A stretch of DNA of 26,525 nucleotides from Bacillota bacterium (GTDB lineage Bacteria; Bacillota; Clostridia; Oscillospirales; Butyricicoccaceae): NCBI GenBank assembly GCA_030705725.1, contig JAUZPW010000001.1, positions 1 to 26,525 of the forward strand, written 5' to 3'. The translations under genes were made by a program, and so were the position numbers. Every line of letters starts with the position of its first letter. The stretch's first letter is position 1. The notes under the pieces are model-generated. The model saw only the letters and a list, made by a program, of their open reading frames with translations. It was not told the origin of the DNA and searched no databases. Positions 1-21,542 of the stretch are shown one piece after another.

Positions 1-1289
1 ACTTCTGCCATCACCTTTTCCTCGTCGATGCCGGTTAAAATCCTGTCCTTCATAAGCACTTTACCGTTGCAGACCGTGGTGACGACGTTTCTGCCGGTCA
101 TGCCGAACAAAACATGTCCGTTGCAGTTTCCGCCGTCCATCGGAGTCAGCGGAATATAATCCGAGACTATAACGTCCGCCGCGGCGCCTTCCTTCAGAAT
201 GCCCAGCGGTTTTTCAAAATACCGCCCCGCGATTTTCGCGTTGCCCTCGAAAAGCATCTGCGGAACCTCGGCCCAGGCGGCGTTCGCGTCGCACAGATGG
301 TGCTTGTGCAGGATGTTCGCAACCTTATAAGACTCGGTCATATCATGGGTATAGCCGTCGGTGCCTAACCCCGTCAAAACTCCGTGGTGAACGATTTCCA
401 TCGTGGGCGGGCAGCCGCAGGCGTTTCCCATGTTCGATTCGGGGTTGTGCACCACCATGGTGTCCGTCTCCTTCAGCAGCTCCATCTCGTGCCTGTTTAC
501 GTATATGCAGTGCGCGGTAATGGTTTTCGGCCCCAGCACGCCCAAATCCATAAGCCTGTCGATAATTCTTTTTCCGTAGTGCTTGAGGCAGTGGTGCAGA
601 TCCTCGATACCTTCCGCGACATGGATATGGTAACCGACCCCTTCCGGTTTCTGCGCCGCGCACAGCTCAAGGGTTTCGTCCGAAAGGGTAAAGGAAGCGT
701 GCAGCCCCATCATACCCGCGATCATGCCGTTTCCGTTTTTTAGTGCATGCTTTATAAAATTAGAGTTTTCCTCAACGGCTGCTTTTGCTTTGTCTTTGCC
801 GTCGCGGTCTGACACCTCATAGCAGAGGCATGTCCTCACTCCCATCTCGGAAGCCGCATTCTCAATCGCGGACAGACTGCCCGTTATTTCTCCATAGCTT
901 GCATGATGATCGAAAACCGTAGTTACTCCGTTTTTTATCGAATCAATGTAAGTCGCCCGTGCGCTCTGCCTGGTCTGCTCAAGCGTGAGGTGGCGGTCTA
1001 TATTCCACCACATTCCGTCAAGAATGTCGAGAAAGCCCTTCGGATTGTATCCGCGGATGCTGAGTCCCCTGGCCATGGCGCTGTATATATGCTCGTGAGC
1101 GTTAATAAATGCCGGCATGATAACGCCGCCCCCGGCGTTTATGAAATCTGCCTTCGGAAAGCTTTCCCTTATCTCCTTGGTAGGCCCGACTTTTTTGATT
1201 TCGCACCCTTCAATCGCGACAGCTCCGTCCTCGAGATATGGATTAGACACGTCCCTTGTAACCATTCTCCCGTTTCCGATAATCAGCAT
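1..1289 (-). CDS. ssnA: Putative aminohydrolase SsnA (amidohydrolase superfamily), 3'-truncated by the window edge
   Basis: Manual translation of the minus strand from ATG at 1289 (RBS GGAGGAG upstream): MLIIGNGRMVTRD...NAHEHIYS...GLHAS...HIHVAEG...AHC...GTDG...KVMAEV. Open to position 1; HxH, HxxE and Asp metal ligands present; typical ssnA context. Missing from the ORF track because no stop lies in the window. Confidence 0.9.
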   Translation of the reverse strand, partial: MLIIGNGRMVTRDVSNPYLEDGAVAIEGCEIKKVGPTKEIRESFPKADFINAGGGVIMPAFINAHEHIYSAMARGLSIRGYNPKGFLDILDGMWWNIDRHLTLEQTRQSARATYIDSIKNGVTTVFDHHASYGEITGSLSAIENAASEMGVRTCLCYEVSDRDGKDKAKAAVEENSNFIKHALKNGNGMIAGMMGLHASFTLSDETLELCAAQKPEGVGYHIHVAEGIEDLHHCLKHYGKRIIDRLMDLGVLGPKTITAHCIYVNRHEMELLKETDTMVVHNPESNMGNACGCPPTMEIVHHGVLTGLGTDGYTHDMTESYKVANILHKHHLCDANAAWAEVPQMLFEGNAKIAGRYFEKPLGILKEGAAADVIVSDYIPLTPMDGGNCNGHVLFGMTGRNVVTTVCNGKVLMKDRILTGIDEEKVMAE

Positions 1290-2127: not shown

Positions 2128-2141
2128 GGGGGATTTTTTTG

Positions 2142-3353
2142 ATGTGCGAGCCCATAAAATGGGTAGAAAACAAAATGCCTAAGACTGAAGACAAAGAGCT
2201 TCAGGTCATGAAACTTGACGAGATAGAAAAAGCCAGGGCTTTTCACAGGAGTTTTCCCGAGTACAGCGAAACTCCTTTGGCGAAGCTTGATCATATGGCG
2301 TCTTTTCTCGGCCTTAAAGAGGTTTATGTTAAAGACGAATCCTACCGTTTCGGACTGAACGCTTTTAAAGTCCTCGGCGGCTCATACGCAATGGCCCGTT
2401 ACATAGCACAGAAAACGGGAAAAGACGTTTCAGAGCTTCCCTTCAGCGTTCTCAGCTCCGACGAGCTCCGCAAAGAGTTCGGCCAGGCCACTTTCTTTAC
2501 GGCAACCGACGGAAACCACGGCCGCGGCGTCGCGTGGTCGGCGAATAAGCTGAAGCAAAAGGCCGTCGTACTTATGCCTAAAGGCACGACTAAGACCCGC
2601 CTGCTCAACATTCAGAAGGAAAACGCGACCGTGACGATTGAGGACGCAAACTATGACGAATGCGTCAGAATGGCGGCAGCGGCTGCCGAAAAGACAAAGA
2701 ACGGCGTTATGGTTCAGGACACCGCGTGGGACGGTTACGAGGAGATTCCCTCGTGGATTATGCAGGGCTACGGCACCATGGCGATGGAAGCGGACGAGCA
2801 GCTTAAAGAATATGGCTGCCGGCGCCCCACGCATGTGTTTGTTCAGGCGGGCGTCGGTTCCCTTGCCGGTGCCGTCACCGGTTACTTTATGAACCGTTAT
2901 CCTGAAAATCCCCCTACAGTGGTCGTTGTTGAGGCCGAGGCGGCCGCCTGCCTGTATAAGGGAGCCTTAGCGGGCGACGGAAAAATCAGAATAGTCGACG
3001 GAGATATGGAGACTATTATGGCCGGCCTTGCCTGCGGCGAGCCTAATACGATTTCCTGGGATATACTTAAAAACCATGTGCGTGTTTTCACATCCTGCCC
3101 CGACTGGGTTTCAGCCAAGGGAATGAGGATGCTTTCCGCTCCCATTAAAGGCGATCCCCAGGTTGTTTCCGGCGAATCCGGAGCCGTCTCCATGGGGCTT
3201 TTGAGCTCGATTATGAAATCCGACGAGCTCAGAGGCTTAAAAGAGGCCCTCGGCCTCAACTCAGATTCAAGGGTGCTTATGTTTTCCACAGAAGGCGACA
3301 CAGACCCGGACCGTTACAAGTCCATCGTCTGGGACGCTGAAAAGTGTTTATAA
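2142..3353 (+). CDS. dpaL: Diaminopropionate ammonia-lyase (PLP, fold type II)
   Basis: VKDESYRFGLNAFKVLGGSYA (PLP Lys), TATDGNHGRGVA, QAGVGSLA, MAGLACGEP; about 403 aa; RBS AAGGGGG. Confidence 0.93.
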   Translation: MCEPIKWVENKMPKTEDKELQVMKLDEIEKARAFHRSFPEYSETPLAKLDHMASFLGLKEVYVKDESYRFGLNAFKVLGGSYAMARYIAQKTGKDVSELPFSVLSSDELRKEFGQATFFTATDGNHGRGVAWSANKLKQKAVVLMPKGTTKTRLLNIQKENATVTIEDANYDECVRMAAAAAEKTKNGVMVQDTAWDGYEEIPSWIMQGYGTMAMEADEQLKEYGCRRPTHVFVQAGVGSLAGAVTGYFMNRYPENPPTVVVVEAEAAACLYKGALAGDGKIRIVDGDMETIMAGLACGEPNTISWDILKNHVRVFTSCPDWVSAKGMRMLSAPIKGDPQVVSGESGAVSMGLLSSIMKSDELRGLKEALGLNSDSRVLMFSTEGDTDPDRYKSIVWDAEKCL

Positions 3354-3368: not shown

Positions 3369-4562
3369 ATGGATTTTGCAAAAATCAAGGAAGCCGCAAA
3401 GTACTATGAAAAGGATATGACAAAGTTTCTCCGCGATCTTGTGCGCATCCCTGGCGAAAGCTGCGGCGAGGAAGGGCATATCAACAGGATCGCCAAGGAA
3501 ATGAAAGCCCTTGGGTTTGATAAAGTCGAAATTGATCCTATGGGCAACGTTCTTGGCTATATGGGCACCGGCAAAACTCTTATCGGCTTCGACGGGCATA
3601 TCGATACCGTAGGAATCGGGAACATGGATAACTGGGAATTCGATCCTTACGAGGGATATGAAAACGACACTGAGATCGGCGGCCGCGGTTCCTCAGACCA
3701 GCTCGGCGGCATCGTTTCAGCGGTTTACGGAGCCAAAATAATGAAGGACCTCGGTCTTTTAAGCGACAAATACACTGTGCTCGTAACGGGCACGGTTCAG
3801 GAAGAAGACTGCGACGGTCTTTGCTGGCAGTATATAATCAACGAGGATAAGGTAAAGCCTGAATTCGTTGTAATCACCGAACCAACTGACGGAAACATCT
3901 ACCGCGGCCAGCGCGGGCGCATGGAGATCCGCGTCGACGTAAAGGGCGTGTCCTGCCACGGCTCGGCCCCCGAGCGCGGAGACAATGCGATATATAAAAT
4001 GGCGGATATTCTTCAGGAAGTGCGCGGCTTAAACGACAAGCTTCACTATGATCCGTTTCTGGGCAAAGGCACTCTTGCCGTTTCAGAAATTTTCTTTACG
4101 TCTCCCTCAAGATGCGCCGTTGCGGACAGCTGCGCAATCTCGATAGACCGCCGTCTTACGCACGGTGAGACATATGAGAGTGCTCTCGACGAAATTTCCG
4201 CCCTGCCTTCCGTAAAAAAATACGGCGCCAAGGTCAGCATGTATTCCTATGACAGGCCGAGCTATAAAAATCTCGTATACCCGACGAGCTGCTTCTTCCC
4301 GACATGGGTAATTCCTGAGGACCATCCCGCGACGATCGCGATGACGGAGGCTTACAAGGGCATGTTCGGCGAGCCCAAAGTCGACAAATGGACCTTCTCA
4401 ACAAACGGCGTTTCCATTATGGGCCGCTTCAATATTCCCTGCATAGGCTTCGGCCCCGGCAAGGAAGCTCAGGCGCATGCGCCGAACGAAAGAACCTGGA
4501 AAGCGGATCTGGTCAAGTGCGCCGCGGTATATGCCGCGCTGCCGTCCCTTTACTGCAAATAA
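3369..4562 (+). CDS. ygeY: YgeY-family M20 metallohydrolase (selenium metabolism-linked hydrolase)
   Basis: M20 motifs DGHIDTV, DQLGG, QEEDCDG, ITEP, AHAPNE; position between dpaL and ygeW; RBS GGAGG. Confidence 0.88.
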
Positions 4563-4586: not shown

Positions 4587-5780
4587 ATGAACACATTAAA
4601 AGATTATATCGGAAAGCTCAATACTCTCAAACTCAGCAATATGTACGACAACGATTTTTTCCTTACCTGGGAAAAGACGGATGACGAACTCCAGGCGGTC
4701 TGGACCGTGGCGGACGCTCTCCGCTGCCTCCGTGAAAACAATATTTCGACAAAAGTCTTCGACAGCGGGCTCGGAATCTCCCTGTTCCGCGACAATTCCA
4801 CCCGCACGCGTTTTTCATTCTCATCCGCCTGCAACCTTCTCGGGCTTGAGGTTCAGGACCTTGACGAAGGAAAATCCCAGATCGCTCACGGCGAGACCGT
4901 AAGGGAAACCGCCAACATGATCTCCTTTATGGCCGACGTCATCGGCATCCGCGACGACATGTATATAGGCAAGGGCAACACCTATATGAGAAACGTTTCG
5001 AAGGCTGTCCGCGAGGGAAACCGTGACGGAGTCCTTGAGCAAAGGCCCACTCTCGTAAACCTTCAGTGCGACATCGACCACCCGACCCAGTGCATGGCCG
5101 ATCTGCTTCACGTCATACATGAGTTCGGCGGAATTAAGAACCTTAAAGGAAAAAAGCTCGCGATGTCCTGGGCGTACTCGCCATCATACGGCAAGCCGCT
5201 GTCCGTTCCTCAGGGCGTAATCGGCCTGATGACCCGCATGGGCATGGATGTCGTCCTCGCTCACCCGGAAGGCTACGAAGTAATGCCGGAGGTTGAGGAA
5301 ATCGCAAAGAACAACGCCGCAAAATCAGGCGGCTCGTTCAGAAAAACCAACAATATGGCCGACGCCTTCAAGGATGCCGATATAGTATATCCGAAGAGCT
5401 GGGCTCCCTTCGCCGCTATGGAAAAGCGCACGGCGCTTTACGGCGACGGCGATATGGACGGCATCAAGAAGCTTGAAAAAGAGCTCCTCGCACAGAACGC
5501 GGATCATAAAGACTGGGCCTGCACCGAGGAACTGATGAAAACAACGAAAAACGGAAGCGCGCTTTACCTGCACTGCCTGCCCGCCGACATCTCCGGCGTA
5601 AGCTGCAAAGAGGGCGAAGTCGACGCGTCGGTATTCGACCGCTACCGCGTTCCCCTTTATAAACAGGCCAGCTTTAAGCCCTATGTAATTGCCGCGATGA
5701 TATTCCTGAGCAAATTCAATGACCCGGCTGCTCTCCTCAAAAAGCTCGAAGACAGAGGCACGCGCAGGATATTTGAATAA
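4587..5780 (+). CDS. ygeW: Knotted carbamoyltransferase YgeW
   Basis: FRDNSTRTR (SxRT), NLQCDIDHPTQ, AYSPSYGKPLSVPQ, YLHCLP; 397 aa; RBS AAGGAG. Confidence 0.92.
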   Translation: MNTLKDYIGKLNTLKLSNMYDNDFFLTWEKTDDELQAVWTVADALRCLRENNISTKVFDSGLGISLFRDNSTRTRFSFSSACNLLGLEVQDLDEGKSQIAHGETVRETANMISFMADVIGIRDDMYIGKGNTYMRNVSKAVREGNRDGVLEQRPTLVNLQCDIDHPTQCMADLLHVIHEFGGIKNLKGKKLAMSWAYSPSYGKPLSVPQGVIGLMTRMGMDVVLAHPEGYEVMPEVEEIAKNNAAKSGGSFRKTNNMADAFKDADIVYPKSWAPFAAMEKRTALYGDGDMDGIKKLEKELLAQNADHKDWACTEELMKTTKNGSALYLHCLPADISGVSCKEGEVDASVFDRYRVPLYKQASFKPYVIAAMIFLSKFNDPAALLKKLEDRGTRRIFE

Positions 5781-5803: not shown

Positions 5804-6748
5804 TTGGAAAAGTCAAAACGAATAGTCATAGCCCTCGGCGGAAACGCGCTCGGCAACACGCTTCCCGAGCAGATGAAGGCAGTTAAAATTACATCCCGCG
5901 CTATTGTGGACCTTATAGAGGAAGGCTGCGAGGTTGTGGTGGTTCACGGAAACGGTCCGCAGGTTGGCATGATAAACAACGCAATGACAGCCCTTTCGAG
6001 GGAAGATCCTTCCCAACCCAATACGCCGCTTTCCGTATGCGTCGCCATGAGCCAGGCTTATATCGGCTACGACCTTCAGAACGCGCTGCGCGAGGAGCTT
6101 TATAACCGTAATATCTACAATATACCCGTGGCGACGATGGTAACGCAGATGCGCGTCGACGAAAACGATCCCGCGTTTTTGAACCCGTCAAAGCCTATCG
6201 GTCATTTTATGACCCTTGAGCAGGCTAAAGTCGCCGAAGAAAAGTACGGTTACATTATAAAAGAGGACTCCGGACGAGGCTACCGCCGTGTGGTCGCCTC
6301 GCCGAAGCCCGCGGAAATAATCGAATTAGGCGCTATACGCACGCTCGTCGATTCGGGACAGCTGGTTATCGCCTGCGGAGGCGGCGGCATTCCCGTCATG
6401 CTTAAAGGCAACCATTTGAGAGGTGCCAGCGCCGTAATAGACAAGGATCACGCCAGCTGTCTGTTAGCCGAAGAGCTTGACGCGGATTATCTTATTATAT
6501 TGACCGCCGTCGAGAAGGTGGCGATAAACTTCAAAAAGCCGGATGAAAAACAGCTTGACGACATCTCGGTCGAAGAAGCCCAAAGATACATAAAAGAAGG
6601 ACACTTCGCGCCCGGTTCGATGCTCCCGAAGGTAGAGGCGTCGGTTCGCTTCGCTTCCTCCAAGCCCGGCCGCACAGCGCTAATAACGCTGCTTGAAAAA
6701 GCTAAAGACGGAATAAACGGCAAAACCGGAACCAGAATACATCTTTAA
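5804..6748 (+). CDS. arcC: Carbamate kinase (YqeA/ArcC family)
   Basis: IALGGNAL, VHGNGPQVG, PSKPIG, GYRRVVASP, GGGGIPV, VIDKD, GSMLPK; TTG start behind GGGGAGG. Confidence 0.93.
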   Translation: MEKSKRIVIALGGNALGNTLPEQMKAVKITSRAIVDLIEEGCEVVVVHGNGPQVGMINNAMTALSREDPSQPNTPLSVCVAMSQAYIGYDLQNALREELYNRNIYNIPVATMVTQMRVDENDPAFLNPSKPIGHFMTLEQAKVAEEKYGYIIKEDSGRGYRRVVASPKPAEIIELGAIRTLVDSGQLVIACGGGGIPVMLKGNHLRGASAVIDKDHASCLLAEELDADYLIILTAVEKVAINFKKPDEKQLDDISVEEAQRYIKEGHFAPGSMLPKVEASVRFASSKPGRTALITLLEKAKDGINGKTGTRIHL

Positions 6749-6751
6749 TAA

Positions 6752-6803
6752 TAAGCATAACCAAAGGGGGCTGCATTTTGCAAGCCCCCTTTGGTTATGC
6801 TTA
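6752..6803. terminator. 21-bp perfect inverted repeat between convergent arcC and lysR; probable bidirectional terminator
   Basis: TAAGCATAACCAAAGGGGGCT (6752-6772) / AGCCCCCTTTGGTTATGCTTA (6783-6803), 10-nt loop. Confidence 0.7.
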
Positions 6804-6853: not shown

Positions 6854-7753
6854 TCAAAGCATTTCCCGCTTAGGATATTCTTTCAGAAAAAGAATAAAAT
6901 CCGACGTATTCTTTGGCAAATACCGATTCTCCATATATACGATATAGAGGTTTCTGATTAATTTGTACTTTCCAAGCGGAAAGATCATCAGCAGACCTTG
7001 CTGTTCAAGCTGCTCAACCATTCTGCGCGAAATGATCGAAATGCCAATGCCTTGTATAATGCACTGCCGGAGCGCGTCGGCATCGTTTAAGTAAACGATT
7101 ATATTCAGTTTATCAATGGATATGTTGAGGCCCGATAAAAAGCGCTCGGTTTCCAATTTTGTTCCGGAACTGCCTGTCCGCATGATAAACGGCTCTTTTA
7201 ATAGCTCGTCAAAAGAACAGCCTGCCTGAAGCATCCGTTGATAATGGGCTGTATTCGGTGCGGCAATGACCAATTCATCAAGGACAAAGGGCTCAAACAC
7301 ACAGTCGGATTCTGCGGTCGTTCCGACAATGCCGACATCAATATTTCCGTCTTTAACCTTCTGGATAATTTCCATACTGTCGGATTGATAAATGTGAAAA
7401 TGCAATTCCGGTGCCTTATGATGGTAGTCGGATAAGATCCCGGGTAAAACACATTGTCCAGGGACTGATGAAACACCGAGAAAAAGCTCTTTCTTATAGT
7501 CATCTGAAAGCTCATGAACAGCCTTATTCCGAAGATGAAGGATGTTGACTGCATATTCATACAGTCGCTGCCCGTCTGCGGTAATTTCAAATTCCTTCGT
7601 TGTCCGTTTAATCAGCCTGACCTTTAATTCCTTCTCCAATGAACGAATATGCGCGCTTATCGTAGGTTGCGTAAGATAGAGCTTTTCAGCTGCGGCTGAA
7701 AAGCTCTTATTCTCAACTGTATAAGCAAATGCTTCCAACTGGTGAAAATCCAT
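6854..7753 (-). CDS. LysR-family transcriptional regulator (CysL/CmpR-like; resembles LysRs recalled from clostridial selenium/sulfur loci)
   Basis: HTH MDFHQLEAF...SFSAAAEKLYLTQPTISAHIRSLEKEL; 299 aa; LysR substrate domain (MRTGSSGT). The subfamily call is from recall only. Confidence 0.92.
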   Translation of the reverse strand: MDFHQLEAFAYTVENKSFSAAAEKLYLTQPTISAHIRSLEKELKVRLIKRTTKEFEITADGQRLYEYAVNILHLRNKAVHELSDDYKKELFLGVSSVPGQCVLPGILSDYHHKAPELHFHIYQSDSMEIIQKVKDGNIDVGIVGTTAESDCVFEPFVLDELVIAAPNTAHYQRMLQAGCSFDELLKEPFIMRTGSSGTKLETERFLSGLNISIDKLNIIVYLNDADALRQCIIQGIGISIISRRMVEQLEQQGLLMIFPLGKYKLIRNLYIVYMENRYLPKNTSDFILFLKEYPKREML

Positions 7754-7797
7754 AACAAAACCTTCAAATTAAATCAACTGTTTCTTAACTTGAGTAT

Positions 7798-7826
7798 ATT
7801 ATATTTTTATTTATAGAAAAAATCAA
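7798..7826 (-). promoter_or_regulatory. Putative sigma-A promoter for lysR
   Basis: Minus strand TTGATT (7826-7821), 17 nt, TATAAT (7803-7798). Confidence 0.6.
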
Positions 7827-7827
7827 T
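7813..7827. promoter_or_regulatory. Candidate LysR T-N11-A box overlapping the lysR -35
   Basis: ATAG-AAAAAAT-CAAT, a partial dyad around T-N11-A at a position typical of LysR autorepression. The AT-rich context weakens the call. Confidence 0.35.
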
Positions 7828-7842
7828 AAATGTCAAATAAAG

Positions 7843-7864
7843 ATGTGAATTATCAATTTCACAT
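7843..7864. promoter_or_regulatory. Dyad ATGTGAA-N8-TTCACAT overlapping the -35 of the DCCP operon promoter
   Basis: Perfect 7-bp arms at 7843-7849 and 7858-7864. Confidence 0.4.
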
Positions 7865-7886
7865 AGAAAGAACGGCATGCTATCAT
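7858..7886 (+). promoter_or_regulatory. Putative sigma-A promoter for the DCCP-activase-desulfurase operon
   Basis: TTCACA (7858-7863), 17 nt, TG-c-TATCAT (7878-7886). Confidence 0.5.
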
Positions 7887-8014
7887 TAAATAGATTGTGT
7901 GATTATTTTTTTGTTGATAGCAACGGGCCTTTTTTACATATATATGGATTTCATACTGATAGAACCGGCCCGATCATGCTTTGCGGCCGAGCTATATAGA
8001 AAGGTGATAAGATC

Positions 8015-9169
8015 ATGGGAGAAATCAAACTGCCGGAAGGTTTCGTAACCTATCCGGAGGCTAGAAAGAAAGCCTTTTTAACTTTAAAAAAGATGAAGGA
8101 AGAGGGGCGCAGAATCGTCGGCGTTTTTTGCACCTATACGCCCTGGGAGCTGATCGATGCTGCGGATGCAGCCGCGGTAGTATTATGCGGCATCGGTGAT
8201 GAAAATATGCCCGCTGCGGAAAAACGTCTGCCGAAAAATCTCTGTCCCCTCATAAAAGCGAGCTATGGCGGCGCGGTTGCCGACCGCTGCCCTTTCTTTT
8301 ATTTTTCCGACATGGTGTTGGGGGAAACCACCTGTGACGGCAAAAAGAAAATGTACGAGCTGATGTCGGAACTAAAGCACACCCACGTAATGCAGCTTCC
8401 CCCGGGACAGTTCGGACGCGGTGCTCTGGAGTTCTGGAAAGCCTCGGTAGAGTCCCTTAAAGATGATCTGGAGCAATTCTACGGAATCACTATCACGAAT
8501 GACCGGCTGAGGGAGGCCATTCACCTGAGGAATCGGGAAAGGAAAGCCATCCTGGACTTCTATGAAATCGGCTGCCTGAAGCCCAGCCCCATTTCCGGCT
8601 ATGAACTGAATACTGTAATAACTTCAAACGAATATGCTTTTGACATCAACAAGAAAATCGAAGCGCTCGAGCAGCGCATACGGGAGCTTAAGGACCTTTA
8701 TGAGCGGGAATATAAAGGGAAAAAGTCACGTCCGCGCATCCTTATTACCGGTTGCCCTACCCATGGCGTCATCAACAAGGTTATAAAGCGCATTGAGGAA
8801 CTGGGCGCAGACGTGGTGGGCTTTGAAAACTGCTGCGGCCCCAGAGAGAAGAAAGACCCAATCGACGAGACAATCGACCCCATCACCGCCATTGCGGAAA
8901 AATATCTGCGGGTTAACTGCTCTGTTATGAGTCCCAACCCGGGCCGGTTCAAGGCCCTTGGCGAACAGATCCACGACTATCAGGCAGACGGCGTTATCGA
9001 AGTACTGCTTCAGGCCTGCCATACCTTTGCCGTTGAATCGGATTCCGTAAGACGGTTTGTGACGGAGGAAAAAGGCATCCCGTATCTTTCCATAACAACA
9101 GACTACTCAACAACTGACCAAGGGCAGATCGATACCCGGATCGGAGCGTTTATAGAGCTTTTAAGCTGA
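8015..9169 (+). CDS. Double-cubane-cluster protein (DCCP)-like / 2-hydroxyacyl-CoA dehydratase HGD-D family Fe-S reductase (YjiM-like)
   Basis: Cys motifs [65 protein letters not shown]; a single 384-aa subunit directly followed by an activase gene; RBS GAAAGGTG. Confidence 0.82.
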
Positions 9170-9240
9170 ACTGACTTAACCAGTCATCATAATAGCCTGC
9201 GCGGATTAAAATTTGATTATATAGCAAGGATAAAAGAGAA

Positions 9241-10014
9241 ATGACGCATTATATCGGTATCGATATCGGCTCCACCTGCGCAAAGACTGTTGTAATGGAC
9301 GAAAACAGGAATATCTTGTATTGCCTGCTTCAACCCACCGGATGGAGCAGCGTTGACACGGCAGAGTCAATTAACGCGCAATTATCGGAGTTGGGTATAA
9401 CTCCCGGCAATTCTGTCTCCGTGGCAACCGGATACGGACGGGTATCCGTTCCGTTTGCTAATAAATGTGTTACGGAGATCACCTGCCACGGGAAAGGCGC
9501 CTGTTTTATTCACGGCATGAACAGTTTAACGGTAATTGATATAGGCGGTCAGGACACGAAGCTGATCGCGGTGGAAAACGGCATGGTGAAGGACTTCGTC
9601 ATGAACGATAAGTGTTCCGCAGGCACGGGACGCTTTTTGGAGGTAATGGCCAATACGCTGGCAGTGCGGCCCGATGAGCTTTGCGAATTGGCGTCTCACG
9701 GTGGAAACACCTCAATAAGCTCCATGTGTACGGTGTTTGCGGAATCGGAAATTATCAGTCTGATCGGGCGCGGGGAACAGAAGGAAAACATTGCGTATGC
9801 CGTGATTGATTCTATTGCAAAAAAAGTTGCTTCGCAGGCAAGCAGATTGCAGTACGCCAGCTCAGCTATTTGCCTTACGGGAGGATTGTGCGGCTTTTCT
9901 TATCTGCGAAGCTCGCTTTCCAGCCTGCTTGGCGCTCCGGTGCTCGCCGGCCAAAACGGGCGATACGCCGGAGCAATCGGCGCGGCCCTGTGTGCCGCTG
10001 CTGTGGGGAAATAA
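9241..10014 (+). CDS. ATP-dependent [4Fe-4S] activase (BadF/BadG/BcrA/BcrD ASKHA family; YjiL/HgdC/DCCP-reductase-like)
   Basis: GIDIGSTCAK, ATGYGR, EITCHGKG, DIGGQDTK, MNDKCSAGTG, ISSMCTVFAESE, LTGG. Confidence 0.92.
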   Translation: MTHYIGIDIGSTCAKTVVMDENRNILYCLLQPTGWSSVDTAESINAQLSELGITPGNSVSVATGYGRVSVPFANKCVTEITCHGKGACFIHGMNSLTVIDIGGQDTKLIAVENGMVKDFVMNDKCSAGTGRFLEVMANTLAVRPDELCELASHGGNTSISSMCTVFAESEIISLIGRGEQKENIAYAVIDSIAKKVASQASRLQYASSAICLTGGLCGFSYLRSSLSSLLGAPVLAGQNGRYAGAIGAALCAAAVGK

Positions 10015-10040
10015 GGCCACCGGAAAGAGAGGACATACGC

Positions 10041-11177
10041 ATGATTTATCTTGATAATGCGGCCACCACGATTCAAAAGCCGCAGCAGGTGATCGACGCC
10101 GTCGCGGCGGCGATGAGTTCCTGTGGAAATGCATCCCGCGGAACCCACAGCGGAGCCCTGCAGGCTTCCCGAGTGGTCTACGACACGCGGGCCAAGCTTG
10201 CCAGACTGTTCAATTGTCACAGCGCCGACCGCGTAGTGTTCACCTCCAATTCTACCGAGGCGCTCAATATTGCCATAAACGGGACTATCGGTTCAGGCGA
10301 TCACGTTATTACCACCGATCTCGAGCATAATTCCGTCCTGCGTCCCCTCTACCGTCTGGAAGACGAGCAGCAGGCAGCGCTTAGCTTTGTCCGTGCCGAC
10401 ATGAAAGGAACGGTGGACTGCACCGATTTTGAGAAACTTATCCGTAATGAAACAAGGGCTATCGTATGTACGCACGCATCCAATCTGACAGGCGATCTGA
10501 TTGATGCGGCACGGGTAGGCGAAATCGCAAAACGCAAAGGGCTGCTTTTCATTTTGGACGCTTCCCAGACAGCAGGCTCAATACCCATTGATATGGAGAA
10601 AATGAAAATAGATATACTTTGCTTTACGGGACATAAGGGATTAATGGGCCCCCAAGGGACAGGAGGGCTTTGCGTCCGGGAGGGTGTCGAAATACGGCCT
10701 TGGAAAGTCGGCGGCTCTGGGGTTCAGTCCTACCGAAGGAGCCAGCCCGCCGAATTGCCCGCCCGACTGGAGGCAGGAACGCTGAACAGCCACGGAATAG
10801 CCGGGCTTTCGGCAGCTTTGGATTATATTTTTGACATTGGAGTGGAAACAATCGGGAAAAAGGAATCTGCGCTGATGCGCCGGTTTTACGACGGTGTAGC
10901 CGGAATCGGCGGTGTTACAGTTTACGGTGACTTTTCTATGAATCGCCGGGCCGCGATTGTGTCTTTGAATATAAAAGATTACGATTCCGCTGTTTTGTCC
11001 GATGCACTGTACGAAACCTATGAGATTGCCACCCGTCCTGGAGCGCATTGCGCGCCCAGACTGCATCAGGCGCTGTACACGACGGATCAGGGCGCTGTGC
11101 GGTTCAGCTTTTCCTGGTTTAATACTGAAAATGAGGTTGACAAAGCGATACAGGCAGTTAAGGAATTAGCTGAATGA
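10041..11177 (+). CDS. Class V PLP aminotransferase, cysteine desulfurase/selenocysteine lyase-like (group II, SufS/CsdA-like)
   Basis: MIYLDNAATT, LEHNSV, DASQTAG, FTGHKGLMGPQGTGG (PLP Lys), RPGAHCAP (catalytic Cys). Start moved to ATG 10041 behind RBS GAGAGGA; the ORF-track extension from 9870 overlaps the activase and is not credible. Confidence 0.88.
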   Translation: MIYLDNAATTIQKPQQVIDAVAAAMSSCGNASRGTHSGALQASRVVYDTRAKLARLFNCHSADRVVFTSNSTEALNIAINGTIGSGDHVITTDLEHNSVLRPLYRLEDEQQAALSFVRADMKGTVDCTDFEKLIRNETRAIVCTHASNLTGDLIDAARVGEIAKRKGLLFILDASQTAGSIPIDMEKMKIDILCFTGHKGLMGPQGTGGLCVREGVEIRPWKVGGSGVQSYRRSQPAELPARLEAGTLNSHGIAGLSAALDYIFDIGVETIGKKESALMRRFYDGVAGIGGVTVYGDFSMNRRAAIVSLNIKDYDSAVLSDALYETYEIATRPGAHCAPRLHQALYTTDQGAVRFSFSWFNTENEVDKAIQAVKELAE

Positions 11178-11223: not shown

Positions 11224-11267
11224 AAAAAAAGGCACCGCGTCAAATAAAAATTCCGCGGTGCCCTTTT
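11224..11267. terminator. Bidirectional intrinsic terminator between the desulfurase gene and xdhC
   Basis: A7-GGCACCGCG...CGCGGTGCC-CTTTT; 9-bp GC stem with a U-tract available on both strands. Confidence 0.8.
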
Positions 11268-11276
11268 CAACTCATA

Positions 11277-11762
11277 TTACTTTCCGACAACCTTATAGGT
11301 CTCGTCCACAATGCGTTCCATCGCGTTTAATATGTTTTCATAGCCCGTGCAGCGGCACAGATGCCCTGATATAAGTTTTCGCAGCTCGTCCCGGTTGTAT
11401 TTTTTTCCCGTGCCCACTATTTCCACAGCCGTCATTATAAGTCCCGGCGTGCAGAATCCGCACTGCACGGCGGCTTCCTCGATAAAAGCTTTTTGTATCG
11501 GGCTTAATTCACCGTTAGGGCCCTTCAGGCCTTCCACTGTCATAATATTTTTCCCTTCGGCCCAAACGGTAAGATAAATGCAGGAGTCCATCGCTTCTCC
11601 GTTGACAAGTACCGTGCAGGCGCCGCATTCGCCGACCTCGCAGCCTTTCTTAACGCTCGTCAGCCCCAGCCGGTTTCTCAGCGTGTCGACAAGCGCTTCC
11701 CTGTCGTCTACGGCAAGCTCGTGAGCTTTACCGTTGACAGTCAAATTAATCACCTTAAGCAT
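11277..11762 (-). CDS. xdhC: Xanthine dehydrogenase 2x[2Fe-2S] subunit
   Basis: GCEVGECGACTV...DSC and QCGFCTPG...HLCRCTGY; overlaps the xdhB stop by 8 nt. Confidence 0.92.
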   Translation of the reverse strand: MLKVINLTVNGKAHELAVDDREALVDTLRNRLGLTSVKKGCEVGECGACTVLVNGEAMDSCIYLTVWAEGKNIMTVEGLKGPNGELSPIQKAFIEEAAVQCGFCTPGLIMTAVEIVGTGKKYNRDELRKLISGHLCRCTGYENILNAMERIVDETYKVVGK

Positions 11763-12642
11763 CTAAAGTACCTCCCGCATTGATAATCGCCTGCTTAAGC
11801 GCGCGTTTTCCCAGTTCCTCTATAAGCTGAAGCCTGAATTCCTTTGATGCGCGCCAGCTCGAACGAGGATTGACCTCCGCGAGCGCGCCTTTTCCCACTT
11901 TTTCAAATAACTCCGGTGAAATCTTCATTTCCTTAACAGCACTCTCGGTTTCCGTGCAGCGCATCGGAGTAGGTGCAGCCACTCCGTATGCCAGCCTCAG
12001 ATCCTCTATAGCCTTTTTATCCGGAGTAAGCTTAACGCTGACCGAACAGCCAAGCGTAGCTATTTCCATAGCGTTTCTCTTTCCGTATTTTATATAATGC
12101 CCGCCGAAACCGTCGTAATTGTCTTTTGTAATGCGGATAGCGGTCAATATTTCGCTGTGCTCGCGCACCGTTTTGCCGGGCCCCTTGTAAAACTGCCCGA
12201 TGGGTACCTGACGGGTTCCGTTCTCCCCGGTCAGCTCGAGTACAGCGTTAAGTGCGAAAAGCGTTGACGCGCTGTCCGCACTGGTTACGCCGTTGCAGAC
12301 ATTTCCGCCGACAGTCCCGATATTCCTTATTTGCGGGCTCCCCACCTGATCGACCGCGTCTCCGAGAACCGGAATATACTTTTTTATTATATCGTTGTTC
12401 GTGATATGCGAAAAGCTTGTGGCCGGGCGGATAAGTATCGTGCCGTCTTTATCCATTTCAATGCCCTTAAGCTCCGCTATGTTGTGGATGCTGACGAGCG
12501 AACATCCCGCGAGCCTTCCCTCGCGAATCTGAATCAGAACGTCGCTTCCTCCGGAAATCACAACGGCATCCGGGTTTTCAGCAAGCGCGCGGACGGCGTC
12601 CGGCACATCCTTCGCCTGATAAATTTTTTCAATATCGTACAT
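11755..12642 (-). CDS. xdhB: Xanthine dehydrogenase FAD-binding subunit
   Basis: ISGGSDVLI, QIRNIGTVGGNVCNG, YIKYGKRNAMEIA, PRSSWRASKEFR; no [4Fe-4S] insertion; RBS AGGAGG. Confidence 0.92.
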   Translation of the reverse strand: MYDIEKIYQAKDVPDAVRALAENPDAVVISGGSDVLIQIREGRLAGCSLVSIHNIAELKGIEMDKDGTILIRPATSFSHITNNDIIKKYIPVLGDAVDQVGSPQIRNIGTVGGNVCNGVTSADSASTLFALNAVLELTGENGTRQVPIGQFYKGPGKTVREHSEILTAIRITKDNYDGFGGHYIKYGKRNAMEIATLGCSVSVKLTPDKKAIEDLRLAYGVAAPTPMRCTETESAVKEMKISPELFEKVGKGALAEVNPRSSWRASKEFRLQLIEELGKRALKQAIINAGGTLDA

Positions 12643-12654
12643 TGCTTAACCCTC

Positions 12655-14946
12655 CTATATAAGCCCTGCTGCTTTGAAATGTTCGACCAGCTTCTGCGGA
12701 TCGAGCGGCAGCGAGTCGACCGCGACGCCCGTCGCATGCAGCACCGCGTTGCGCAGAGCGGGCGCCACCGGTATTGCCGGCGGCTCTCCGAGCGCCTTAT
12801 TCCCGTACGGCCCTGTCGGGTCGTTAATCTGCACGAAATCAACGTGCAGATCGGGGGTGTCCATCGAGGTAGGCATTTTATAATCGAGCAGATTGTCGTT
12901 AAGCGGTTTCCCGTTTTTGTCGTACAGAAGTATTTCGCTCAGTCCGTATCCGATTCCCATGCTTATGCCGCCGTGAACCTGTGCTTCCGCAAGCTTGGGA
13001 TTAATCAGTATGCCGCTGTCGTGGACGTTGATTATATTGAGCACTTTAACCTTTCCGAGAGGCATATCCACCTCAACCTCCGCGAAGCATACGCCGCTGG
13101 CGAATGTGTTTTCCTTGCAGTGATATGTGGCCTCGGCGGTGATATGCACCGAGCGGTCAAGGCTGTAAAACGCTTCGGTCGCGAGCTCTTCCATCGAAAG
13201 AAGCGATTTATTATCCGCCATCGATACAATATAATTGTCTCTTATGTCAAGTCCCTCTGCGGGAAGCTTAAGCTTATACGAAGCGTAATCCAGTATTTTT
13301 GCTTTTAGCTGCTCGGCTGTCTTTTTCAGCGCTTTGCCGCTGACGTACGTCTGCCTTGACGCATACGCTCCCGTATCAAACGGAGTAATGTCAGTGTCCT
13401 GCGTTGAGACGACATATATCCTGTCCTCGGTAATGCCGAGGGACTCCGCCGCCATCTGCGAAAATACGGTGTCGGCGCCCTGGCCTATCTCGGTAGCCCC
13501 CATCTGGATCTGGAGCGAACCGTCCTGGTTCAGCACCATGCGGCAGGAAGCGGTTTCAAGCGAGATGGGATAAACTCCCGTTTTATAGCAGAAAATCGCC
13601 ATGCCCACGCCGCGGCGGACCGGGCCGGTCTGATCCTTGTACTCAGCCCGTTTCTCGTCCCAGTGTATAAAATCCCGCCCCTTAAGTATGCATTCCTTTA
13701 AGCCGTAGCTTTCGAACCCGAATTTGAGATGCGGGTCGACATATCCTTCCTTCACGCAGTTTTTAAGCCTGTATTCAAGAGGATCGATGCCCGTGAGCCT
13801 TGCGAGGTCCTCCGTCAAAGCTTCCGTAACGAAATCGCTTTGCGGAATACCGTAGCCGCGCATAGCGCCCGCCGTCGCCGAGTTTGTATAAACGGTATAG
13901 CTGTCAGCCTCAAGCCCTTTTTCATCCTGGTAAAGCTGCTTGAACATATTTGCCGCGTTTGCCGCGATTGCATGGCCGTGAGACGCATAAGCGCCCTGAT
14001 TTGAAAATACCTCGAGCTTTCTTGAAACCAGCGTACCGTCCGGTCTGACGGCAGCCTTGGCATGAAATTTTACGGCGTGGCGCACCCTGGTGCAGGCAAG
14101 CGTTTCTTCCCTGGTGAGCTCCAGGCGCACTCCGCGCCCTCCGACCTGCGTGCATAAAAAAGCGTTTAAGGGCTCGTAAAGCACATCCTGCTTGTTGCCG
14201 AAGCCGCCTCCTATGTAAGGCTTAATCACGCGTATCTTTCCCCACGGAATTCCGAGCGCCTGCCCTATAACGCGCCTCACAATGTGAGGGATCTGCGTGG
14301 ACGTGGTCACTACGATCTTGCCGTTTGCGTCCTGATACGCAAAAGAAACCGGAACCTCTATATGACAGTGCTGAACGCGCTGGGTCTCATAGACCTTGTC
14401 GATCAGCAGCAGCCCGTTTTCCTTTGCTGCCTTTTCAAAATCCCCGTCTCCGACAGTAAACCGGGTATGCTTCAATATGTTGTCCGGATATTCAGAGTGA
14501 ACCGGCACGGCGCCCTCCGCCATTGCTTCGTCAACCGTCAGAACCGGCGGATACTCTTCATAAACGACCTTTATGAGCCTCGCGGCGCGGCTTGCCGCCA
14601 CCTCGTCCTCCGCGATCACTGCCGCAATATCGTCTCCGTAAAAACGAACCCTTTGATTCAGTATTTTTCTGTCCTGAACGTCCTGATGCGCCGCCTCGAC
14701 AGACCACGGATGACCCGCCGTCGGAAACTGAATATCCGGGACGTCAAAACATGTCACGATTTTAACCACGCCCGGAACCTTAAGCGCTTCATCCAAATCA
14801 AAGCTTTTAACAAGGCCGTTCGCGATTTTGCTGTGTACGACCCTGGCGACAAGCAGCCCGTCCGGAGCTAAGTCTGCTGAATATTTTGCCTCTCCTGTAA
14901 CCTTGGCATACGCGTCAACTCTGTCAATCTTCTTCCCAACACCCAT
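12655..14946 (-). CDS. xdhA: Xanthine dehydrogenase molybdopterin-binding subunit (E. coli XdhA-type)
   Basis: RVDAYAKVTG, TQIPHIVRR, GGGFGNKQD, GAYASHG, AMRGYG, EIGQGADT, ASRQ, QVHGG, KALGEPP (catalytic Glu), C-terminal AGLI. Start taken as ATG 14946; the alternative at 14958 has no RBS spacing. Confidence 0.9.
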   Translation of the reverse strand: MGVGKKIDRVDAYAKVTGEAKYSADLAPDGLLVARVVHSKIANGLVKSFDLDEALKVPGVVKIVTCFDVPDIQFPTAGHPWSVEAAHQDVQDRKILNQRVRFYGDDIAAVIAEDEVAASRAARLIKVVYEEYPPVLTVDEAMAEGAVPVHSEYPDNILKHTRFTVGDGDFEKAAKENGLLLIDKVYETQRVQHCHIEVPVSFAYQDANGKIVVTTSTQIPHIVRRVIGQALGIPWGKIRVIKPYIGGGFGNKQDVLYEPLNAFLCTQVGGRGVRLELTREETLACTRVRHAVKFHAKAAVRPDGTLVSRKLEVFSNQGAYASHGHAIAANAANMFKQLYQDEKGLEADSYTVYTNSATAGAMRGYGIPQSDFVTEALTEDLARLTGIDPLEYRLKNCVKEGYVDPHLKFGFESYGLKECILKGRDFIHWDEKRAEYKDQTGPVRRGVGMAIFCYKTGVYPISLETASCRMVLNQDGSLQIQMGATEIGQGADTVFSQMAAESLGITEDRIYVVSTQDTDITPFDTGAYASRQTYVSGKALKKTAEQLKAKILDYASYKLKLPAEGLDIRDNYIVSMADNKSLLSMEELATEAFYSLDRSVHITAEATYHCKENTFASGVCFAEVEVDMPLGKVKVLNIINVHDSGILINPKLAEAQVHGGISMGIGYGLSEILLYDKNGKPLNDNLLDYKMPTSMDTPDLHVDFVQINDPTGPYGNKALGEPPAIPVAPALRNAVLHATGVAVDSLPLDPQKLVEHFKAAGLI

Positions 14947-15060
14947 AAATATGACCATTCCTTTCGCTTAATTGCGTCCTGTGCGCCGAATACCGGCGGC
15001 ACTGTGCGGGAGCTGCTTTTGCCATGGGCGGGCCGCAGCTGACCGCTTAAAAATTTATAT

Positions 15061-16335
15061 TCAAAACAGCATGCTGCCAAAAACAAATTTATGCGCTATA
15101 TTCTCATTCCCGGATAAATAAACGGCCCTTTCAAGACGTTCTCTGCAAGTCAGCTTTTGCGGATGCCTCAGACCGCTGTCGTCGATAACGACGGCGTCAA
15201 ATTCAAAGCCCTCATCAAATCCTCCCGCAAAGCCGAAGAATTCCCCGCCGCCTTTAGTCCCGAGGTAAAAAGCCTCCTCAAAGCTGAGCGGCTTTAAGCC
15301 TTCGTCAATAAGCCTCCATCTAAGCTTTGAAACCTGAATCGCGTCCGTCATCGCGCGAAAAATCGATTCGTGCGCTCCCCCCGCTATGTCGCTTCCGAGT
15401 CCGGTTTTTACGCCTTTATCCAGAAACGTCCTGACCGGAGCTATACCGGACGCCAGATTTTCGTTTGACTGCGGGCAGTGGGCTATAAAAACGCCTCTTT
15501 CCCTGATTCTCTCTATTTCACGGTCGTCCGAGCCGACACAGTGAGCCATCACGGTTTTAACGCCCCCGCCGAACAGGCCGAACCTGTCGTAGGCGTCCGC
15601 GTAAAACTCAGCGTCGGGGCAAAGCTCTTGCACCCACTCGATCTCATTTCTGTTTTCCGAAAGATGCGACTGAACCGGAAGATCGTGCTTAACCTGTATT
15701 TCTTTAAGCAATTTCATAAGCTCGTCGGAACAGGCCGGAATAAATCGCGGCGTCAAAATCGGTTTTATCCTTTCGCAGCGCCCTTCGCAGCGCGTTATCC
15801 ATTTCTCCGTGTCCGATGCCGCCCGCGCAGCGCTTTCTTCGGTCAGGTAATCCGGGCTGTTTCTGTCCATGTTAACTTTTCCGACGTAAGCGATCATTCC
15901 TGTTTTTTCGAGGCAGTCCATAAGGATCTCCGTCGCGCCCGCGTGAATCGTTGAAAACACGCAGGCCCTCGTGGTTGCGCCCGCCCTTATGTCCCCGGCA
16001 AAAATTTCATACGCTTTTTTTGCGTATTCTAAATCTTTGAAACGCCCTTCCTCCGGGAAGGCGTGGTTATTAAGCCAGCTTAAAAGCTCGGTATCCGTAT
16101 AAAGCGCGCGGAAAGCATACTGAGATGCATGCAGGTGCAAATCGCAGAGGCCAGGAATAACAAGCATCCCGGAATAGTCTATAACCTTAAGTCCTGTATA
16201 TTTATCAGGAATTTTTTCAAAAACACCTTGTGAAATTCCGTCCGTGCAAATAAGGTAATGGTCAGAAAACGATAAAAGCGTGCTTTTATCCCTGCTCCAG
16301 CATATATCGCCTTTTATGATAAAGTCGCGGCTCAA
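15061..16335 (-). CDS. guaD: Guanine deaminase (amidohydrolase)
   Basis: DLHLHASQY, TPRF, SHLSEN, MAHC, GSDIAGG, EEAFYLGT; TTG start at 16335 behind GGGAGGG; adjacent to xdhABC. Confidence 0.85.
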   Translation of the reverse strand: MSRDFIIKGDICWSRDKSTLLSFSDHYLICTDGISQGVFEKIPDKYTGLKVIDYSGMLVIPGLCDLHLHASQYAFRALYTDTELLSWLNNHAFPEEGRFKDLEYAKKAYEIFAGDIRAGATTRACVFSTIHAGATEILMDCLEKTGMIAYVGKVNMDRNSPDYLTEESAARAASDTEKWITRCEGRCERIKPILTPRFIPACSDELMKLLKEIQVKHDLPVQSHLSENRNEIEWVQELCPDAEFYADAYDRFGLFGGGVKTVMAHCVGSDDREIERIRERGVFIAHCPQSNENLASGIAPVRTFLDKGVKTGLGSDIAGGAHESIFRAMTDAIQVSKLRWRLIDEGLKPLSFEEAFYLGTKGGGEFFGFAGGFDEGFEFDAVVIDDSGLRHPQKLTCRERLERAVYLSGNENIAHKFVFGSMLF

Positions 16336-16351
16336 ACGTTTTCCCTCCCAA

Positions 16352-16380
16352 ATTATACAAATACTTACATAAATAGACAA
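16352..16380 (-). promoter_or_regulatory. Putative internal sigma-A promoter for guaD-xdhABC
   Basis: Minus strand TTGTCT (16380-16375), 17 nt, TATAAT (16357-16352), in a 120-bp AT-rich gap. Confidence 0.55.
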
Positions 16381-16386
16381 ATTCGA

Positions 16387-16405
16387 ATCCAAAAATCCTC
16401 TGTAA
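16387..16405. promoter_or_regulatory. Single degenerate copy of the 19-bp candidate operator
   Basis: ATCCAAAAATCCTCTGTAA matches 14/18 of ATMCAAAAANTTTTTGKAT; 6 bp upstream of the guaD -35. Confidence 0.3.
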
Positions 16406-16455: not shown

Positions 16456-17433
16456 TCAGCGTTCCTCGCGGAAATAGTTATAGCCGCAGCTTTGCGGTAT
16501 TCGATGCTCGCGGGACTGGCGAATGCTGGTGGCCACAAGGACAACCACGGTTGCGGCATACGGAAGCGTGCCGTAAATCTGCATCGGAATTCCGAGCGGA
16601 AGATAAAGTCGTAAAATTGACAGCCCGCCGAAAACGAGCGAACCTAAAAGCGCTCTGGACGGATTCCAAGTTGCGAAGATAACCAGAGCAACGGCAATCC
16701 ACCCCATGCCGTTAATGCAGTTATGCACCCAGATTCCGGAGCACGTCACCATAACCACATACATCCCGCCTATTCCGCAGATGCCTCCGCCGACGCAGGT
16801 CGCGATATACTTGAAAAGAGTAACGTTTATGCCCGCGGCGTCGGCCGTCGCGGGATTTTCCCCTACCGCGCGCAAATTTAACCCCGCCCTCGTTTTGTTT
16901 AATAAATAAGCCATAGCGGCGGCAATTATAACTCCCAGATAAACTAGAATGTTGTAGTTGAAGAGCAGTTTGCCGAAAAACGGGATAGAAGAAAGCCCCG
17001 GTATGCTGATTCCCAAAAAAGCATCCTTTATTTTGTTTCCGACGCCGGCATAGCCGCTGGCGGTGGTATTCGCCATGACCTCGCCGAAGAAGTTCCCGAA
17101 TCCCGCGCCGAAGATAGTAAGCGCGAGGCCTGTGACATTCTGATTTGCTCTCATGGTTACCGTAAGGAAGCTGTATATAAGCGCTCCGAAAGCGCCGGAG
17201 AAAAAGGCGCATATAACCGCAATAAGTACGGCCAGGGCTCCGGAAGGAGCAGTTACGAATTTTTCATAATAGAAGGCTCCCGCAAGGCCCGCTACGCCGC
17301 CCATAAACATCATGCCCTCGACGCCCAGGTTCAGATTTCCTGATTTTTCTGTAAGAATCTCTCCGAGCGTTCCGAAAAGAAGCGGGGTCCCCGCAAGCAC
17401 GGCGGCATAAAGCAAATTTATGAGCTTATCCAT
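16456..17433 (-). CDS. Purine/nucleoside ABC transporter permease (CUT2; NupQ/YufQ-like)
   Basis: TPLLFGTLGEILTEKSGNLNLGVEG, GLNLRAVGENPATADAAGINV, GMGWIAVALVIFATWNP; start 17433 behind GAAAGGAG, overlapping the upstream stop. Confidence 0.88.
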   Translation of the reverse strand: MDKLINLLYAAVLAGTPLLFGTLGEILTEKSGNLNLGVEGMMFMGGVAGLAGAFYYEKFVTAPSGALAVLIAVICAFFSGAFGALIYSFLTVTMRANQNVTGLALTIFGAGFGNFFGEVMANTTASGYAGVGNKIKDAFLGISIPGLSSIPFFGKLLFNYNILVYLGVIIAAAMAYLLNKTRAGLNLRAVGENPATADAAGINVTLFKYIATCVGGGICGIGGMYVVMVTCSGIWVHNCINGMGWIAVALVIFATWNPSRALLGSLVFGGLSILRLYLPLGIPMQIYGTLPYAATVVVLVATSIRQSREHRIPQSCGYNYFREER

Positions 17434-20082: not shown

Positions 20083-20114
20083 AAGACACCCCCCCTTCAT
20101 AATGCTTTATAGCC

Positions 20115-20145
20115 CGGAACGAGAACGTAAAACGTTCTCGTTCCG
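20115..20145. repeat. 14-bp perfect inverted repeat between bmp and the ATPase gene (stem-loop without U-tract)
   Basis: CGGAACGAGAACGT-aaa-ACGTTCTCGTTCCG. Confidence 0.7.
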
Positions 20146-20156
20146 AACACGGTTAT

Positions 20157-21326: not shown

Positions 21327-21451
21327 TTCATCATCTCCAAATTTATTTACGCCGCGAAAAGCAGCGTTAATTCTTCTTTTTTGTCTGGAAACTCTCCACA
21401 AAAAAATTAAAAACTGCCAAAATATACGTCATAGTGCTTCACGAAGACATG

Positions 21452-21521
21452 AAGACTTATAGACAACTATTTACGGTAGTTTGTAGAAACGCTCAACCAA
21501 TTTTGGGCATATATAAATCCC
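21452..21521 (-). ncRNA. Purine riboswitch aptamer, guanine-type (C74)
   Basis: Minus strand GGGATTTATA-TAT-GCCCAA-AATTGG-TTGAGC-GTTTCTAC-AAACTA-CCGTAAA-TAGTTG-TC-TATAAGTCTT: 10-bp P1, conserved J2/3 GUUUCUAC, L3 CCGUAAA, L2 ending in GG, U22/U47/U51/C74; upstream of purine transport and catabolism genes. Confidence 0.9.
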
Positions 21522-21542
21522 GATAATATTCTGTTTGTTTCA

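Follow-up and report, generated by a model that had tools for sequence, protein, structure and literature searches.

What is an operon for a double-cubane cluster protein (DCCP), a protein whose physiological function and substrate have been stated to be unknown (PMC9351452), doing among genes for purine degradation? The question is raised by a 26.5-kb contig of a metagenome-assembled genome (MAG; 1.97 Mb in 394 contigs, 94% complete) from the Butyricicoccaceae, and the whole contig is called the window here. Its gene map was built from a listing of open reading frames (ORFs) and from protein family scans, and a four-gene cassette stands in it between ygeX-ygeY-ygeW-arcC on the left and xdhCBA-guaD on the right. 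The cassette is a selenium-linked module, and its placement in a purine island was found only here within our sample. Our preferred reading, held with modest confidence, is that it serves selenium mobilisation under a selenium-sensing LysR, and that the DCCP performs a reductive selenium step, not a purine reduction. The cassette comprises the following features:

6854-11177, both strands: the whole cassette, with LysR_Se on the minus strand and DCCP-activase-lyase on the plus strand
6854-7753, minus strand: LysR_Se, a selenium metabolism-associated LysR divergent from the operon (NF040786; PF00126 and PF03466)
7754-8014, no strand: AT-rich divergent control region
8015-9169, plus strand: DCCP, a single-subunit reductase of the HGD-D family (NF040772; PF06050)
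9241-10014, plus strand: DCCP reductase, or HgdC-type ATP-dependent activase of the ASKHA fold (TIGR00241; PF01869)
10041-11177, plus strand: class-V pyridoxal phosphate (PLP) lyase of the EF2568/SclA family, selenocysteine lyase/cysteine desulfurase-like (TIGR01977)

A preliminary description of this DNA, made from the letters alone, had seen a self-contained unit of a divergent LysR and three co-oriented genes, and this is confirmed by the ORFs and by all four families, which pass their NCBIfam cut-offs. The DCCP reaches 491.5 bits on the model NF040772 (“double_cubane”; 491.2 bits in the genome search) with a cut-off of 350, and it matches the solved DCCP (7YYL/6ENO) with an E value of 3e-69. 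On dehydratase models it falls far under the cut-offs (HadC 89 versus 700, HadB 27 versus 750, another model 58 versus 421), and a profile search found no second HGD-D gene in the genome, hence no alpha/beta pair; it is thus a single-subunit double-cubane protein and not an HgdAB pair, as the description had it. Cys39, Cys58, Cys77, Cys107, Cys273, Cys302, and Cys335 are in register with the cluster cysteines of the solved protein (7YYL_C), and these seven, together with Cys92, are the eight cysteines invariant across 89 DCCP relatives, so the double-cubane ligands are in place. By analogy with its family, the protein would be expected to hold an [8Fe-9S] cluster and to catalyse ATP-dependent reduction of small molecules. 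One more residue, Cys247 (ITGCP; window positions 8753-8755), is kept in 86 of the 89 close relatives, while Thr occupies the position in the solved Carboxydothermus hydrogenoformans protein as well as in 16 second, divergent paralogues; judging by this pattern, it may be a subfamily-specific functional cysteine.

The activase gene lies 71 nt downstream of the DCCP gene. Its product scores 235.5 bits on TIGR00241 (cut-off 125.4) and matches the DCCP reductase DCCP-R (7YYL_E), and the two cluster cysteines of HgdC (1HUX) have counterparts in its Cys124 and Cys162, which bears out the ASKHA activase proposed earlier. The pair is like DCCP/DCCP-R of C. hydrogenoformans (6ENO, 7YYL; Jeoung and Dobbek) in its single HGD-D subunit, seven aligned cysteines, and homodimer-type ASKHA reductase with two cluster cysteines; an identity of roughly 40% is suggested by bit scores and is not a computed value. 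It differs from that system in Cys247 and in being joined to LysR_Se and a gene of the selenocysteine (Sec) lyase family. With 2-hydroxyacyl-CoA dehydratases and benzoyl-CoA reductases (HgdAB/HadBC, BcrBC/BzdNO) it shares the superfamily and ATP-driven electron injection by an HgdC-type activase, but the window has one HGD-D gene, no alpha/beta pair, scores under the cut-offs, and, as had been noted, neither CoA-transferase nor acyl-CoA dehydrogenase in the family scans.

The last gene of the operon had been described as a group II desulfurase-like gene. A PLP lyase is indeed confirmed (434.9 bits on TIGR01977, cut-off 377), but the start had to be corrected: the listed ORF (9870-11177) begins too early, and the true start is the ATG at 10041, which stands behind a GAGAGG ribosome site 26 nt past the activase stop. 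Lys199 (PLP), Cys337, and His96 align with the SufS-type catalytic residues. SclA (EF2568) of Enterococcus faecalis belongs to the same TIGR01977 family, with the PLP lysine and the catalytic cysteine, and its host is alike in having SelD and selenium-dependent molybdenum (Mo) hydroxylases without Sec decoding. However, on the SclA model NF040779 the window lyase scores 373.1 bits, under the cut-off of 525, its counterpart to His99-His100 of SclA is His96-Asn97, and its gene follows the DCCP pair, whereas sclA adjoins selD. What His100 does in SclA is not clear either (SclA study). SclA strongly prefers selenocysteine in its kinetics, and cysteine is no more than an inhibitor of it. In a lyase tree, the window copy is sister to a lyase from another genus (genome G132) that is encoded in a DCCP-YedF-DUF3343-activase-lyase operon, and it is orthologous to lyases of selD/yedF/DUF3343 operons.

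Since the lyase is also SufS-like (267.9 bits on TIGR01979; PDB hits include E. coli CsdB/SufS) and below the SclA cut-off, the whole system might belong to sulfur: an ordinary cysteine desulfurase would serve either Fe-S assembly for the DCCP pair or sulfuration of the molybdenum cofactor of XdhABC, and the LysR would be of a sulfur type. Enzymes of the xanthine dehydrogenase (XDH) family need a terminal sulfido ligand, which is delivered by NifS-like proteins together with XdhC, and this speaks for such a system, as does the description of DUF3343 and YedF as carriers of selenium or sulfur (Lin 2015, PMC5322559). We nevertheless consider it improbable. The LysR passes a selenium-specific model, its next-best model being far under its own cut-off; DCCP tracks SelD almost perfectly; further desulfurases in the genome are available for Fe-S assembly; and a paralogue of the lyase suits Mo-cofactor work better. 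This second EF2568-family lyase (contig C305, 160-1299, minus strand; 422 bits on TIGR01977) is encoded immediately ahead of yqeC, a gene for an XdhC-family maturation factor, and mocA, and is a long branch of the clade to which the window lyase belongs. Going by this genomic position, it appears to be a better candidate than the window lyase for direct Mo-cofactor work.

The regulator scores 301.8 bits on NF040786 (cut-off 250), the next-best model, YeiE, giving 142 bits with a cut-off of 480, and it faces the DCCP/lyase operon in a SelD-bearing genome. In other species, all six LysRs that stand divergently next to a DCCP operon pass NF040786 as well, and in relatives the LysR_Se family adjoins selD or DCCP. 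In one genus (G103:C17, G108:C1, G122:C35, G135:C80), a second, lower-scoring LysR_Se paralogue (about 246-259 bits) is co-directional with the DCCP gene and right beside it, and the main LysR_Se copy in these genomes faces selD. A response to selenium status, with selenophosphate as a possible effector, is a proposal of the literature, made for HrsM; the LysR_Se described here may respond in a comparable way.

Within the control region, an inverted repeat TGTGAA-N8-TTCACA lies at 7844-7863, and its right half coincides with the -35 element of the promoter-like site of the operon (7858-7886); a promoter-like site for lysR lies at 7826-7798. No operator common to seven LysR_Se-DCCP intergenic regions was found, the fold of the 131-nt DCCP leader is no better than that of shuffled sequences (z -0.93), and Rfam gave no match inside the cassette. 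No public sequencing run was listed when either the entire cassette or only DCCP served as the query.

What accompanies DCCP in other species was examined at 80 loci with 10-kb flanks (DCCP identity 45-86%), which were probed with the proteins of the window and of its genome. The neighbours were the activase (40 loci), DUF3343 (19), YedF (14), the lyase family (7), LysR_Se (6), and SelD (4); selenium markers occur within 10 kb at 24 of the 80 loci, and a purine-related gene, arcC only, at one. The nearest relative (86% identity) reads LysR_Se-activase-DCCP-SelD-YedF-DUF3343, and in several genomes DCCP is inside the selD operon, upstream of selD. The order DCCP-activase-lyase is seen again in three other genera (G001, G003, G132), in G132 with YedF and DUF3343 inserted among the genes. 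A cultured carrier of a LysR_Se-DCCP-activase-lyase cluster is Neofamilia massiliensis (locus L095). Unbiased clustering of neighbours also brought out carriers of PF11823 and an NMT1-type ABC transporter. In Synergistaceae (loci L038, L043, L046, L049, L054), a recurrent operon consists of DCCP, YedF, activase, a second divergent DCCP, and DUF3343, and the DCCP operon is often preceded by an NMT1-type ABC transporter.

The DCCP–selenium link itself is already published and is not new, so the “undescribed system” of the preliminary description was an overstatement, as the NCBIfam names also attest. Lin et al. defined LysR_Se, YedF, and DUF3343 as selenium-linked in 2015, and their STRING table already listed a “2-hydroxyglutaryl-CoA dehydratase subunit” and a “CoA-substrate-specific enzyme activase” as partners (PMC5322559). 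Haft and Gwadz built NF040772, found 955 of 970 DCCPs in SelD genomes, and suggested processing of a selenium compound or a selenium-bridged cluster (10.1101/2022.07.06.499078); a 2023 preprint calls DCCP provisionally selenium-linked. The published selenium neighbourhoods (PMC5322559; Haft and Gwadz 2022/2023; type I MGC paper PMC10418091) are alike in linking LysR_Se, the Sec-lyase family, the activase, and DCCP to SelD/YedF/DUF3343. The operon described here differs in that SelD, YedF, and DUF3343 are not in it but about 16 kb off in the same island, and in that LysR_Se faces the DCCP operon and not selD.

The selenium-bridged cluster deserves consideration as an alternative in which DCCP consumes selenium: a bridging Se would replace the ninth sulfur, the lyase and SelD would build this cofactor, and the true substrate would be unrelated to selenium. 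Haft and Gwadz offer it as a formal possibility for the SelD co-occurrence, and the lyase, DUF3343, and YedF beside DCCP suit cofactor assembly equally well as trafficking. However, the solved DCCP structures hold an [8Fe-9S] cluster (PMC9351452), DCCP groups are not set apart by any sequence signature specific to selenium (Haft), and the place of DCCP within the selD operon, upstream of selD, is typical of a supplier, although this is not proof. We therefore give this alternative a small share of our belief, slightly larger than that given to the sulfur system. The simpler idea raised in the preliminary description, that the desulfurase merely builds the double-cubane cluster, is unlikely because wherever the lyase adjoins a DCCP among the 80 loci, selenium markers are always present too.

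The same association holds within the family. Among 151 genomes of the family of the window genome, DCCP over the cut-off occurs in 49, SelD in 106, YqeB in 63, LysR_Se in 46, and YgeW in 21. SelD is present in 48 of the 49 DCCP genomes, the exception being 80% complete and having YqeB, in agreement with the count of Haft and Gwadz. SelD genomes without YqeB are taken to be Sec decoders because their selD mostly carries an in-frame TGA; DCCP is found in 37 of 44 of these and in only 11 of 62 YqeB genomes, and it thus tracks Sec-decoding genomes better than YqeB genomes in this family. LysR_Se and DCCP occur together in only one of the 63 YqeB genomes, that of the window.

The genome in question has SelD, YedF, YqeB, YqeC, and DUF3343, while genome searches found no SelA, no SelB above the cut-off, no SelU, no YedE, and no tRNA-Sec. 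As far as its gene content tells, within the limits of the MAG, the Se-cofactor trait (YqeB/YqeC) is its only detectable selenium use, and it follows from the absence of SelA, SelB, SelU, and tRNA-Sec that the Mo hydroxylases of the purine pathway are the only detectable selenium users. In Lin et al., LysR_Se is tied mainly to Sec decoding, whereas here it stands with the Se-cofactor trait only. Contig-end overlaps of 94-100% identity (97-99% from C1, the window, to selD) chain C1-C215-C266-C349-C216-C214-C305-C196-C116; positions 1-760 are the part of the window concerned, and since some overlaps are not identical, the assembly may mix several strains. Beyond ssnA, going left, the inferred island of selenium, Mo, and purine genes runs through ygfK, DUF3343 (PF11823), a selenium-dependent XDH (TIGR03311), hyuA, and a ModE-like gene, and continues with selD, yedF, yqeB, moeA-like, moaA, moaC/B, modABC, the second lyase, yqeC, the XdhC-family factor, and mocA, which puts a distance of about 16 kb between selD-yedF-yqeB and the DCCP gene. 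Two genomes of the same genus lack the cassette, SelD, and YqeB, yet match the right flank of the contig; because SelD, YqeB, and DCCP are all missing from them, the whole island may have been acquired horizontally.

The preliminary description had also considered that DCCP supplies super-reducing electrons for reduction of the purine ring or urate, and the cassette does lie between genes for purine catabolism. The flanking genes are:

3-1289, minus strand: ssnA, at the contig edge
1474-2127, plus strand: YheO-like regulator (PF08348 and PF13309)
2139-3353, plus strand: ygeX
3369-4562, plus strand: ygeY
4587-5780, plus strand: ygeW
5804-6748, plus strand: carbamate kinase (arcC)
11277-14958, minus strand: xdhC, xdhB, xdhA
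15061-16392, minus strand: guanine deaminase (guaD)
16456-21401, minus strand: Bmp-type ABC transporter, behind a purine riboswitch

Electrons from the DCCP pair might serve reduction of urate or 2,8-dioxopurine, or be passed to XDH, dioxopurine dehydrogenase (DOPDH), or YgfK, and published variants do substitute the dearomatising reductase in some lineages. We hold this for very improbable, the least probable of the explanations considered. The genome has the full 2,8-dioxopurine pathway (selenium-dependent XDH/DOPDH, YgfK, SsnA, HyuA, YgeY, YgeW, YqeA, YgeX), and eight enzymes, with no DCCP among them, have sufficed to reconstitute this pathway (10.1101/2025.04.24.650524; 10.1101/2025.05.19.654654). 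DCCP as a stand-in for a missing YgfK/UacX was likewise ruled out, YgfK being present and split over contigs C215 and C266. The 11 YqeB relatives with a DCCP-activase pair have neither selenium nor purine neighbours beside it, so that across these and the 80 loci the single arcC is the only purine gene within 10 kb. In the converse direction, 13 of 20 YgeW genomes lack DCCP and the other seven have YgeW and DCCP on different contigs, and at 12 of 12 purine loci of relatives nothing cassette-like follows arcC.

A 37-bp repeat, a candidate purine operator, occurs at 1391-1427 and 21589-21625 (28 of 37 positions matching), in the ssnA/ygeX control region and before the transporter operon. The cassette promoter has no copy of it (the best match there, 20 of 37, is at background level), and the cassette therefore looks regulated apart from the purine genes; it is also convergent with xdhC, with a terminator between. 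The YheO-like regulator accompanies ygeX in 9 of 12 relatives as well. Purine genes are thus all but missing beside DCCP in other species, and the position of the cassette in a purine island seems to be an isolated case. The proposal of the preliminary description that the trio is a reductive sulfur or selenium mobilisation system maturing the adjacent XdhABC survives in its first half, which fits LysR_Se, the orthology of the lyase, and the SelD/YedF/DUF3343 neighbours; as to the second half, the module is not specific to XdhABC or to purine loci, since none of the 12 purine loci carries the cassette and most YgeW genomes do without DCCP.

Selenium mobilisation by the cassette could proceed as follows. 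Free selenocysteine would be the source from which the PLP lyase loads selenium on its Cys337, to be held there as a selenosulfide; from cysteine, it would load sulfur instead. The ATP-hydrolysing reductase would deliver very-low-potential electrons to DCCP for a reductive step in selenium trafficking, most likely the release of selenide from Se(0) bound to the lyase or to a carrier. The selenide would pass to SelD and the selenophosphate into the YqeB/YqeC route, the end users in this genome presumably being XdhABC and the selenium-dependent XDH/DOPDH, and LysR_Se would tune the operon to the selenium status. According to the work on SclA, the product of this lyase is likely to be a selenosulfide, for which DTT or a similarly strong reductant is needed in vitro (10.1101/2020.02.07.939272). 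In C. sporogenes, SelD has been reported to be required by both Mo hydroxylases of the purine pathway (10.1101/2025.04.24.650524). A more specific version, in which DCCP and its reductase are the missing selenide-generating step of anaerobes, freeing HSe- from the selenosulfide of the lyase or of YedF/DUF3343 for SelD, and here solely for the purine Mo hydroxylases, is put forward tentatively and with considerable doubt.

Several points weigh against selenium mobilisation as the role of the cassette. The link of DCCPs to selenium is one of gene associations, and the nearest DCCP orthologues (73-78% identity) are mostly alone and in mixed contexts. DCCP is not essential for the Se-cofactor trait, since 51 of 62 YqeB genomes lack it. 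The selenium specificity of the lyase is only putative in view of its SclA score under the cut-off and of His-Asn in place of His-His. The Se(0)/H2Se couple has a potential close to that of H2 (PMC5187540), so that thermodynamics does not call for an ATP-driven super-reductant. The MAG is fragmented, which makes the absences and the scaffold provisional. A complex prediction for DCCP and the lyase gave a score of 0.00, which counts neither for nor against. A potential of about -0.7 V for the Se(0)/HSe- couple found no confirmation, and no argument from thermodynamic necessity is made.

The borders of the cassette are formed by two hairpins, both read directly in the sequence:

6753-6800, no strand: long inverted repeat, a candidate two-way terminator, between the arcC stop and the lysR stop
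11231-11262, no strand: GC-rich hairpin, a two-way terminator, between the lyase gene and xdhC

The stem of the first is about 23 bp long, with a single bulge, and no clear U-tract is seen; the second has a 9-bp GC stem flanked by an A-run and a T-run. The terminators placed earlier at 6752 and 11224 are thus matched by strong hairpins, but a simple terminator scan lists neither of them. Further to the right, the purine riboswitch (RF00167 in Rfam, 52.7 bits, 21440-21536, minus strand) lies upstream of the Bmp-type transporter, which heads a string of genes on the same strand through guaD to xdhABC. A tandem glycine riboswitch (RF00504, 22336-22494, minus strand; 63.3 and 40.7 bits) precedes a gene of the PF03458 glycine-transporter family, whose true start is probably further downstream because the listed ORF start at 22377 overlaps the glycine aptamer.

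The value of the locus is that of an experimental handle, not of a discovery. How anaerobes make selenide for SelD is unsettled, and the natural function of DCCPs is an acknowledged open question (PMC9351452). As the locus shows, the pairing of LysR_Se with DCCP is not tied to selenocysteine decoding. The sole detectable selenium use of this genome is the Mo-hydroxylase cofactor of the gut urate/purine pathway, which makes it an unusually clean setting to test DCCP: any selenium role of the cassette here should surface directly as xanthine dehydrogenase or dioxopurine dehydrogenase activity. If true, the selenide-generating role would be the first natural function for DCCPs.

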